A DNA stretch of 64,000 nt, from the NCBI RefSeq assembly GCF_057098645.1, contig NZ_CM169472.1. One strand, written 5' to 3'. Below are positions 42,801 to 45,800 of the stretch, piece by piece. A program made the position numbers. Each line of letters starts with the position of its first letter. Position 1 is the first letter of the stretch.

Positions 42801-45800
42801 GATCTGGCTACTGATATCGATCTTGGGCAAAACAAAGCCAATGAGGCGATCAATCGTCTGAAAAATGCCCGCGATTTACGCACCAATCCGGTGTTGCAGC
42901 TCAACCTGGCGAACGCTTATCTGCAAGGCGGTCAACCACAAGAAGCGGCCAATATTCTTAATCGCTACACCTTTAATAATAAAGATGACAGTAACGGCTG
43001 GGATTTACTGGCACAGGCGGAAGCCGCGCTAAATAACCGCGATCAGGAACTGGCTGCGCGAGCAGAAGGTTATGCGCTCGCCGGGCGACTCGATCAGGCT
43101 ATTTCGCTGTTGAGTAGCGCCAGTTCGCAGGTGAAATTAGGCAGCCTGCAACAAGCGCGTTACGATGCGCGCATCGACCAGTTACGCCAGCTGCAGGAAC
43201 GCTTTAAGCCTTATACCAAGATGTAATTCGCATTAAAGGAAGAACAATGACCAAACAGGTAAAAATCTACCATAACCCACGCTGTTCAAAGAGCCGGGAA
43301 ACGCTGAACCTGCTGAAAGAAAACGGCGTGGAGCCAGAAGTGGTGCTCTACCTTGAGACACCCGCCGATGCGGCAACGCTGCGCGATTTGCTGAAAATGC
43401 TGGGGATGAATAGCGCCCGTGAATTGATGCGCCAGAAAGAGAATCTTTATAAAGAACTGAACCTGGCTGACAGTTCGCTTAGCGAAGAGGCGCTGATTCA
43501 GGCAATGGTGGATAATCCGAAGCTGATGGAGCGCCCGATTGTGGTCGCGAATGGCAAAGCGCGGATTGGTCGTCCACCGGAGCAGGTACTGGAAATCGTG
43601 GGTTAAGATGTGCTCCATCGCTAGTTGAAGCACATTGCCGGATGCGACGCTTGCCACGTCTTATCCGGCCTACGAATACTATGGATTAACTTCGCGTAGT
43701 TCGGATAAGGCGTTCGCACCGCATCCGACAATAAACACCTTATCTACAACTTCAGAATTTCTTTCACAAACGGAATGGTCAATTTACGTTGCGCGGTAAT
43801 CGACGCACGATCCAACTGATCCAACGTCATAAATAGCGTGCGCATTTCTCTGTCGAGCCGCTTCAGCAAGAAACGCCCCACATCTTCCGGCAGTTCAAAA
43901 CCACGCAAACGCGCGCGTAACTGTAGCGCCTGCAACTTATCTTCATCAGAAAGTGGCTGCAATTTGTAGATCTGCCCCCAGTCGAGTCGCGACGCGAGAT
44001 CCGGTAATGCCAGATTCAACTGCCGCGGTGGACGATCGCCGGTGATCAACAACCGTGTTTTGCCCGATTCCAGAATTCGATTGTAGAGATCGAAAATCGC
44101 CATCTCCCACAACTCATCGCCTGCAATACACTCAATGTTGTCGATACAGACCAGCGACAAATGCTCCATACCGTCGAGCACTTCCGGAACAAACCAGGTG
44201 CGTTTATCCAGCGGGACATAGCCCACCGCATCGCCACGCTGCGACAATTCCGCGCAAGCCGCGTGCAGCAGATGGCTGCGCCCCGCGCCTTCGCGTGCCC
44301 AGAGATAGATGTAACCGCTATGTTCCTGACGCAGCACGTTTTGCAGCGCGGCCAGTAAAGAGGAGTTATCCCCCGGCCAGAAACTTGCAAAGGTTTCGTC
44401 GTCAGGAAGATAAAGTGGCAAAGAGAGCTGTGCCGGTGTGTTCAGAGATACCTCAACCAGGATTTCACAAAATCGCGAGAAGTTTACCACAGAATCCCAT
44501 GATGTTTGAACCGGGCAGCAACACTGCCCGGTCGGTACATTATTTGTCTGTTATATCCGCGTCTTCTGCGTCCAGCACCACTTCTTCAGGGCGCAGCACA
44601 CTGATCAGTTTGAAAATCAAACTTAAGCCGATACCGACGATGGTCGCCAGCGCCATACCTTTCAACTCCGCCGCGCCGATGTTTACCTTCGCGCCACTGA
44701 CGCCGATGATCAAAATCACGGAAGTCAGGATCAGGTTCTGTGCTTTGTTGTAATCCACTTTCGATTCGATCAAAACACGAATACCGGAAGCACCGATGAC
44801 ACCATAAAGCAGCAGCGAAACGCCGCCCATCACCGGCAATGGGATCATCTGGATAGCGGCAGCCAGTTTACCGACGCAGGAAAGCAGGATAGCGAAAATC
44901 GCCGCCCCGCCGATAACCCAGGTACTGTAAACACGGGTGATCGCCATCACGCCAATGTTTTCTCCGTAAGTGGTATTTGGCGTAGAGCCAAAGAAGCCGG
45001 AGATCACGGTCGACAGGCCGTTAGCAAACATCGAACGGTACAAACCTGGATCGCGCAGCAGATCTTTTTTGACGATATTAGCCGTTACTACCAGGTGCCC
45101 TACGTGTTCGGCAATAACCACTAACGCCGCTGGCAGAATAGTCAGAATGGCAAACCACTCGAAGCGCGGCGTATAGAGGGTTGGCAGCGCAAACCAGTGA
45201 GCATTAATAATCGGCGTAGTATCGACAATTCCCATTGCGAAAGAGAGCGCGTACCCCACCAGCACGCCAATTAAAATCGGGATAATTGCCAGGAAACCAC
45301 GGAACAGCACGGAACCTAAAACCGTGACCGCCAGGGTGGTAATAGAGATGATGATGGTTTTGGAGTCTGGCGTTTGCCCTTCAGCCGGGAGTAAACCCGC
45401 CATACCGGCAGCTACGCCCGCCAGCTCCAGACCGATGACGGCAACGATTGCGCCCATTGCCGCAGGTGGAAACAGCACGTCCAGCCAGCCGGTCCCCGCT
45501 TTCTTCACGATAAAAGAAACCAGGCAGAACAGCACGCCGCACATAATAAAGCCGCCCAGCGCGACTTCATACCCTAACGGCAACAGTAACAATACCGGTG
45601 AAATAAAGGCAAAGCTGGAACCAAGATAAGCCGGAATTTTCCCTTTACAGATGAAGAGATACAGCAGCGTTCCAATACCGTTAAATAACAGTACAGTCGC
45701 CGGGTTAATATGAAATAAGACGGGCACCAGGACGGTTGCACCAAACATGGCGAACAAATGTTGCAAACTAAGCGGGATTGTCTGTAAAAGTGGCGGTCTT

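Follow-up and report, generated by a model that had tools for sequence, protein, structure and literature searches.

Besides hda, the E. coli genes with a confirmed start other than AUG, GUG or UUG are infC and pcnB, which start with AUU, and yfjD, which starts with CUG as hda does; such near-cognate codons initiate with approximately 1–2% of the efficiency of AUG. The weak codon serves to limit or regulate the expression of infC and pcnB; the AUU of infC is the sensor of the autoregulatory loop of initiation factor 3 (IF3), whereas a loop of this kind is neither known nor demonstrated for hda. In some surveys of non-canonical starts, infC and pcnB are the sole entries and hda is missing; EcoGene 3.0, citing Su'etsugu 2008, records hda as the first CTG start of the Escherichia coli chromosome. 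Here, we analyse hda within a stretch of 64,000 nucleotides (contig NZ_CM169472.1 of RefSeq assembly GCF_057098645.1, hereafter ‘the window’), in which a previous reading made from the sequence alone (the sequence-only reading) had proposed that several genes need non-ATG starts to yield the expected proteins. We conclude with high confidence that the interval 43744–44490 is hda and that its translation starts from CUG 44445, the GTG at 44490 not being the start. This CUG start is already known and present in the reference annotation, and none of our findings on it is new in kind. The points that we add are refinements rather than discoveries, namely the invariance of CTG across the order, the inclusion of the upstream GTG in an extended −10 element, a transcription start site (TSS) situated after this GTG and before the CUG, and a catalogue of inconsistent public models.

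The window is E. coli chromosome of O145:H28-like type. Its 4-kb stretch around hda matches O145:H28 chromosomes of E. coli with 100% identity, and 5,422 of the 5,426 complete E. coli genomes gave a match to this stretch with a coverage of 80% or more. Coding sequence (CDS) coordinates for the whole 64 kb were taken from the RefSeq annotation of the O145 strain RM9872, produced by the Prokaryotic Genome Annotation Pipeline (PGAP), and placed by exact end matching. The curated K-12 MG1655 record (NC_000913.3) was used as a second annotation reference, its offset to the window being 2,574,331 in the hda region. Between K-12 and the window, the start regions of the five genes considered (hda, gcvR, narQ, purM and hyfG) are identical except for one single-nucleotide polymorphism, 48 nt upstream of the narQ start. 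For conservation, a scan retaining one genome per species provided 80 Enterobacteriaceae loci with 93–99% protein identity, i.e. 81 sequences with the window, and DNA from seven additional Enterobacterales (Yersinia, Hafnia, Pantoea, Dickeya, Xenorhabdus, Proteus and Serratia) brought the total to 88 (87 loci plus the window). Within the species, the 81 nt centred on the hda start were queried against 5,426 E. coli records, both in their native form and in versions carrying ATG, GTG or TTG. Start strength was expressed as the energy of the duplex formed with the 3′ end of the 16S rRNA (anti-Shine–Dalgarno, anti-SD), and annotated starts were compared with the starts of the longest open reading frames (ORFs).

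The hda CDS, mapped from PGAP and encoding the DnaA inactivator Hda, occupies positions 43744–44445 on the minus strand (233 codons plus stop). Its CTG initiation codon (44443–44445, minus strand), supported by direct reading, conservation and literature, is found exactly where the sequence-only reading had placed it, 15 codons inside the longest ORF, and is the start used in both PGAP and K-12. It represents the 16th codon of a 248-codon ORF (43744–44490) opened by a GTG (44488–44490, minus strand) which is not the hda start. A Shine–Dalgarno (SD) sequence, GAGGT, is located at 44450–44454 (minus strand), 4 nt upstream of CTG (5 nt for the GAGG core), and its pairing energy of −6.9 kcal/mol is the strongest among all candidate starts tested. 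The hda start consequently combines the marks of a non-canonical start, i.e. a CTG codon, no canonical rival for the N-terminus and a properly placed ribosome-binding site. In K-12, hda (b2496) is likewise CUG-initiated and encodes 233 amino acids; the start codon and the 70 nt upstream are identical to those of the window, as is the annotated start.

Protein data point to the same N-terminus. The window Hda scores 476.6 bits against NF005982 (cut-off 268) and 282.9 bits against TIGR03420 (cut-off 194.8), the NCBIfam profile starting two residues before the CTG, and near-identical Hda proteins carry PF22688 and PF00308. The crystallized E. coli Hda (5X06), with 99.6% identity to that of the window, is the 233-residue form, reading MNTPAQ after the tag. 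In the CUG-initiated protein, the clamp-binding hexapeptide QLSLPL stands at residues 6–11, so that five residues precede it, versus 20 in the 248-residue form; among 123 distant Hda representatives, 102 have the clamp motif (Q-hydrophobic-x-hydrophobic-x-hydrophobic) at most nine residues from the N-terminus. Judging from its identity to 5X06, the window Hda probably stimulates the hydrolysis of DnaA-ATP together with the DNA-loaded clamp (regulatory inactivation of DnaA, RIDA). The only substitution relative to K-12 Hda is G146A, the initiation region being unchanged. This residue is Ala in the window (NLALPDL) and Gly in K-12 (NLGLPDL), and lies just before the loop 148–154 that the Hda–clamp structure paper describes at an interface.

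The hda start is CTG in all 81 Enterobacteriaceae sequences and in the seven other Enterobacterales, and the SD is equally stable (GAGGT invariant in the 81-sequence alignment, GAGGTG also present in the seven others). This does not reflect a general conservation of leucine codons. Indeed, among the 38 Leu codons conserved in hda, the first alone is invariant, each of the other 37 using 2–5 or more synonymous codons, and only three of the 164 degenerate codons whose amino acid is invariant are also invariant at the nucleotide level across the 81 sequences. Thus, the first codon is constrained as CTG and not as ‘Leu’. Moreover, in 44 of the 81 sequences the frame that runs from the nearest upstream stop to the CTG contains no ATG, GTG or TTG, and an in-frame stop occurs within seven codons upstream of the CTG in 26 of the 81; where upstream start-like codons are missing in this way, only the CTG can be the start. 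Within E. coli, the 81 nt centred on the start are identical in 5,396 of the 5,426 records, and no genome identical to the versions with ATG, GTG or TTG in place of CTG was found among them. The lone record reaching at least 99% for each of these three queries is most likely a partial match at a record origin, the best full-length matches being at 98.8%. The other two invariant codons of hda are CCG (Pro4, 44434–44436) and AGT (Ser21, 44383–44385). The first eight codons as a whole are unusually conserved as DNA, which could reflect a constraint on the translation initiation region.

Upstream of the start, the alignment is organized as a promoter. An extended −10 element, TGgTAAACT, was identified from conservation at 44481–44489 (minus strand; TG at 44489–44488, hexamer at 44486–44481): the pattern TGnTAnAnT is found in 81 of 81 Enterobacteriaceae sequences, 33–39 nt upstream of the CTG, with the TG, TA, A and T positions invariant. 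The TG of this element is supplied by the GTG at 44490 itself (tGTGgTAAACT in E. coli). A generic promoter and terminator scan of 44350–44650 called none, the −35 and −10 of hda together matching 8 of 12 positions. From the conserved hexamer, a TSS was predicted approximately 7 nt further, near 44474, and the published TSS agrees with this prediction: Supplementary Data 2 of the SMRT-Cappable-seq study lists an operon composed of b2496 only (hda alone, noted as ‘same’ as in RegulonDB), with a TSS at NC_000913.3 position 2618805 on the reverse strand. The hda-only mRNA hence begins at a G at 44474 (minus strand) with a 5′ untranslated region (UTR) of 29 nt. This TSS is 16 nt downstream of the GTG at 44490, i.e. 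between the two candidate starts, so that the hda-only mRNA lacks this GTG, and its 29-nt leader carries the SD. In the accessible part of the Cappable-seq 2016 supplement, no entry close to hda was found. A contribution of 5′ UTR structure to the use of CUG was considered and rejected, as this leader is no more stable than shuffled sequence (z = +0.66).

A second transcript context exists for hda. The 3′ end of uraA forms a hairpin at 44509–44533 (minus strand; 11-bp G+C-rich stem, −22.2 kcal/mol, z = −3.9) devoid of a U-tract, and the SMRT-Cappable-seq data place the end of the upp-uraA transcript at 2618838, i.e. position 44507 of the window, 2 nt after this hairpin. In the same data, 95 of 260 reads continue past the uraA end in one condition, as against 8 of 214 in the second, and the operons listed include an upp-uraA-hda variant. 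Termination after uraA is accordingly leaky and condition-dependent, and read-through past the hairpin implies that the GTG at 44490 is transcribed on a minority of molecules. Two Hda isoforms could then be envisaged, one of 233 residues from CUG on the hda-only mRNA, the other of 248 residues from GTG 44490 on the read-through upp-uraA-hda mRNA. The GTG does have a weak SD (GGGA, 4 nt ahead, −4.0 kcal/mol), and the GTG and the CTG share an open frame in E. coli, Escherichia sp. MOD1 and E. albertii. However, this frame is broken by indels or in-frame stops in most other species: a 1-nt insertion puts the GTG out of frame in a divergent genome labelled E. coli (L005), and in-frame stops occur in most genera, so that the extension is not conserved, which argues against a function. 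The 15 upstream codons are furthermore conserved in the manner of a promoter and not of codons, 20 residues ahead of the clamp motif would be unusual among Hda proteins, and the curated annotation itself moved from 248 residues (the old 747-nt model) to 233. We therefore regard a second, longer isoform as very improbable.

An equally improbable scheme is one in which the CUG is fed by termination–reinitiation from a short upstream ORF rather than by the SD alone. This ORF would start at GUG 44468 and comprise eight codons, its UGA overlapping the CUG (CUGA). A TGA in the +1 frame does overlap the CTG in all sequences, and start codons in that frame are encountered in the upstream 5′ UTR (ATG in 23 of 87, GTG in ten species). 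Yet any CTG followed by the conserved Asn codon (AAY) creates this TGA, which thus provides no independent signal for an upstream ORF. The upstream start-like codons are conserved neither in position nor in frame (the ATG being in frame 0 in 19 species and in frame 1 in four), only 6 nt of mRNA precede the GUG at 44468 in E. coli, which lacks an SD, and the ubiquitous TTG in frame 2 is merely part of the SD context gTTGAGGT. Given this lack of conservation, reinitiation was rejected as the main mechanism.

As for a start at the downstream TTG, codon 9 (44421), which would yield 225 residues, public models of this kind exist (678 nt for Klebsiella KPN_02819, 225 residues in Pantoea and Serratia) and TTG is a canonical alternative start, but conservation effectively refutes it, since it would delete the clamp motif QLSLPL, conserved to the residue, codon 9 is TTG in only 42 of the 81 sequences and CTG in the other 39, and no SD is available (−1.7 kcal/mol at 10-nt spacing).

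Several points nonetheless count against this account of hda. Ten Salmonella and Citrobacter sequences have an in-frame ATG eight codons (24 nt) upstream of the CTG, and six other Enterobacterales an in-frame GTG two codons upstream. The upp-uraA-hda read-through transcripts do include GTG 44490. In the portion of the TRAINSPOTTER supplement available to us, no ribosome-profiling or N-terminomics entry was found for hda. That selection keeps Hda low by way of a weak codon is something that we infer. As to direct protein evidence, an experimental N-terminus of Hda was reportedly obtained by Su'etsugu and colleagues (J. Biol. Chem., 2008), a work known to us through its mention in EcoGene 3.0.

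The upstream start-like codons also account for the diversity of public models. The Salmonella and Citrobacter ATG is the source of the 241-residue Hda annotations; if the TSS is conserved, it would sit approximately 5 nt from the 5′ end, without an SD. The 235-residue annotation (MLLNTPAQ...) found in Yersinia, Hafnia, Pantoea, Dickeya, Xenorhabdus and Proteus starts approximately 6 nt upstream of the CTG, at the GTG formed by the last three bases of the SD GAGGTG itself (gagGTGcttCTG), and has the appearance of a systematic annotation error; this SD-embedded GTG is out of frame in Serratia aquatilis. In total, public Hda models of 225, 233, 235, 241 and 248 residues coexist for one conserved start. 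Older literature numbers Hda residues on the 248-residue model, and the consequences extend to transcript mapping. Kim 2012, a study of TSSs in E. coli and Klebsiella, used the 747-nt hda model (NC_000913.2, 2616097–2616843) and reported only a 2-read TSS 620 nt upstream, in uraA, the Klebsiella orthologue being annotated with 678 nt; the hda TSS determined by SMRT-Cappable-seq would fall inside this 747-nt model. Outside the Enterobacterales, three hda genes from more remote gammaproteobacteria (one Ferrimonas-like, one Colwellia-like, and one at 64% identity) start with GTG, 6–8 residues before the clamp motif. Judged from these three outside genes, the CUG of hda looks specific to the Enterobacterales.

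Hda is an AAA+ protein which, once bound to a sliding clamp loaded on DNA, triggers ATP hydrolysis by DnaA; overproduction of Hda is said to be harmful, to judge from the title of an article by Banack and colleagues (2005). Near-cognate codons are decoded by initiator tRNA and selected against by IF3. In the scheme that we favour, the hda mRNA begins at 44474 from the extended −10 TGgTAAACT, the invariant GAGGT positions the 30S subunit, and initiator tRNA starts at CUG 44445 to give the 233 residues. Initiation at CUG is reported at 1–2% of that at AUG, i.e. approximately 50–100 times less, and the association of a strong and well-spaced SD with such a very weak codon would yield a low but robust level of Hda. 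Purifying selection against higher expression may then hold the codon at CTG, and never TTG, GTG or ATG, across the Enterobacterales. A weak and invariant CUG fits a tight dosage control of Hda as a low-abundance brake on replication initiation. One may also speculate, although we consider it unlikely, that the CUG acts as a regulator, Hda synthesis increasing when IF3 is in short supply with respect to ribosomes and decreasing when IF3 is abundant. A single substitution would turn CTG into TTG, GTG or ATG, and weakening of the SD was an alternative. If true, an IF3-sensitive CUG would tie DnaA inactivation and the frequency of replication initiation to the state of the translation machinery, and the invariance of CTG would result from selection for this dependence on IF3 and not just for a low amount of Hda.

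At the scale of the window, non-ATG starts are not enriched. The 48 annotated CDSs start with ATG (41), GTG (5), TTG (1) and CTG (1), and the non-ATG share of 14.6% (7/48) is slightly under the 17–18% expected, the ATG/GTG/TTG usage given in the literature for E. coli and for further genomes with good annotation being 83/14/3% or 81.8/13.8/4.35%. The non-ATG count is thus no more than chance, and CTG alone is rare. In-frame ATG, GTG or TTG codons between the annotated start and the nearest upstream stop are found in 21 of the 48 genes. Over-extension of N-termini by a longest-ORF caller, as announced by the sequence-only reading, is consequently the norm for almost half of the genes, and as a matter of annotation hygiene the longest-ORF rule mis-sets 21 of the 48 N-termini in the window.

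The other four non-canonical starts named by the sequence-only reading (TTG of gcvR, GTG of narQ and purM, and, with less assurance, GTG of hyfG) are all present at the positions proposed and correspond to the starts used in PGAP and K-12. Annotation, SD energies, NCBIfam profiles and the N-termini of structures concur that these non-ATG starts are needed for the expected proteins. When ribosome-binding sites were compared, as that reading had suggested, every annotated start displayed a stronger anti-SD pairing than its longest-ORF rival: for the five genes including hda, energies at the annotated starts range from −5.5 to −6.9 kcal/mol, with the duplex ending 3–8 nt before the codon, versus 0 to −4.0 kcal/mol at the longest-ORF starts. 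On the other hand, the sequence-only reading had designated experimental N-termini matching the longest-ORF ATG starts as the result that would refute it, and this proposal was ill-posed, since four of the five longest-ORF starts are GTG or TTG, only that of hyfG being ATG. The UUG of gcvR and the GUG of narQ, purM and hyfG are ordinary alternative starts, each with its own SD; these genes and the overlaps described below do not differ from ordinary enterobacterial GUG/UUG genes and 1-nt or 4-nt overlaps (purMN, hyf), and are textbook features.

The gcvR gene (24077–24649, plus strand; PGAP and K-12) starts with TTG at 24077, where the SD AAGGA gives −5.6 kcal/mol, versus 0 at the longest-ORF TTG at 24011. 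Position 1 of NCBIfam NF008612 falls on this TTG codon, and the N-terminus of the Vibrio GcvR homologue 1U8S is two residues downstream of it. Ghrist and Stauffer reportedly examined the UUG of gcvR in 1998; a literature search on gcvR with UUG retrieved nothing. For narQ (9901–11601, plus strand; PGAP and K-12), the GTG at 9901 lies five codons inside the longest ORF, which opens with a GTG at 9886; its SD GGAG gives −6.4 versus −3.3 kcal/mol, the N-terminus of NarQ in PDB 5IJI (M-IVKRP) corresponds to the residue of GTG 9901, and position 1 of NCBIfam NF008184 (NarQ) falls on this codon. The purM gene (46866–47903, plus strand) starts with GTG at 46866, also five codons inside the longest ORF (GTG 46851), with −5.5 versus −0.2 kcal/mol, and the first residues of PurM in PDB 1CLI are VTDKTS. 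In the accessible part of the TRAINSPOTTER supplement, purM has N-terminal peptides, (M)TDKTSLSYK... and TDKTSLSYK..., at this GTG (NC_000913.3 2621197, i.e. 46866 in the window) together with Ribo-RET support; in that same part, purM only was represented, and no N-terminomics or Ribo-RET entry was found for gcvR, narQ or hyfG. The hyfG gene (32658–34373, plus strand) starts with GTG at 32658, 15 codons after the ATG (32613) that opens the longest ORF. Its SD GGAG gives −6.6 versus −1.5 kcal/mol. Homology to HycE (7Z0S) begins at residue 22 of the hyfG ORF, equivalent to residue 4 of HycE, and the HycE start falls within three residues of the GTG.

The three stop/start overlaps of the sequence-only reading are likewise found, all as TAATG junctions with a 1-nt overlap on the plus strand: the gcvR stop with the bcp ATG at 24649, the hyfA stop with the hyfB start at 25989 (PGAP and K-12), and the purM stop with the purN ATG at 47903. 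They correspond to the same-strand stop/start overlaps used to define coupled pairs; bcp and hyfB have their own GGAG within the upstream gene, and none is obvious for purN. These junctions are ordinary operon overlaps, of a type often linked to translational coupling, which may operate here as well. Each start and overlap named by the sequence-only reading was thus right, yet the list was incomplete, as it omitted the GTG starts annotated by PGAP for yfgG (54959–55150, plus strand) and yfgH (55461–55979, plus strand) and three further overlaps in the hyf operon (hyfF/hyfG, 11 nt; hyfH/hyfI, 4 nt; hyfI/hyfJ, 8 nt).

HyfG is 571 residues long in the window and 555 in K-12, which lacks the 16 residues ARDYSPVGPLIRGSGF (window 33813–33860). 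These residues align with ARDFSNVGPMVRASGH, which belongs to a conserved part of HycE. Among the 5,426 E. coli genomes, 2,179 have the long hyfG, approximately 2,115 a K-12-like deletion of 48 nt, and 1,132 give no match to the hyfG segment. Elsewhere in the operon, hyfF is intact in the window and frameshifted in RM9872, and the window differs further from RM9872 in lacking an IS3 copy between aegA and narQ. Downstream of hda, the arsC–hda intergenic region (43610–43740) displays, by eye, palindromic units resembling repetitive extragenic palindromic (REP) sequences, of the gccggatgcggcg type; an inverted-repeat search there found none at the thresholds used. An Rfam scan of the whole window gave no match besides naRNA4, a nucleoid-associated, REP-derived non-coding RNA that is unrelated to the starts, located at 17151–17228 (plus strand) between ypfN and ypfH (85.7 bits). 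Finally, focB is split by ISEc20, an insertion sequence of the IS110 family (window 39062–40258 and 38153–38953), as it is in RM9872.

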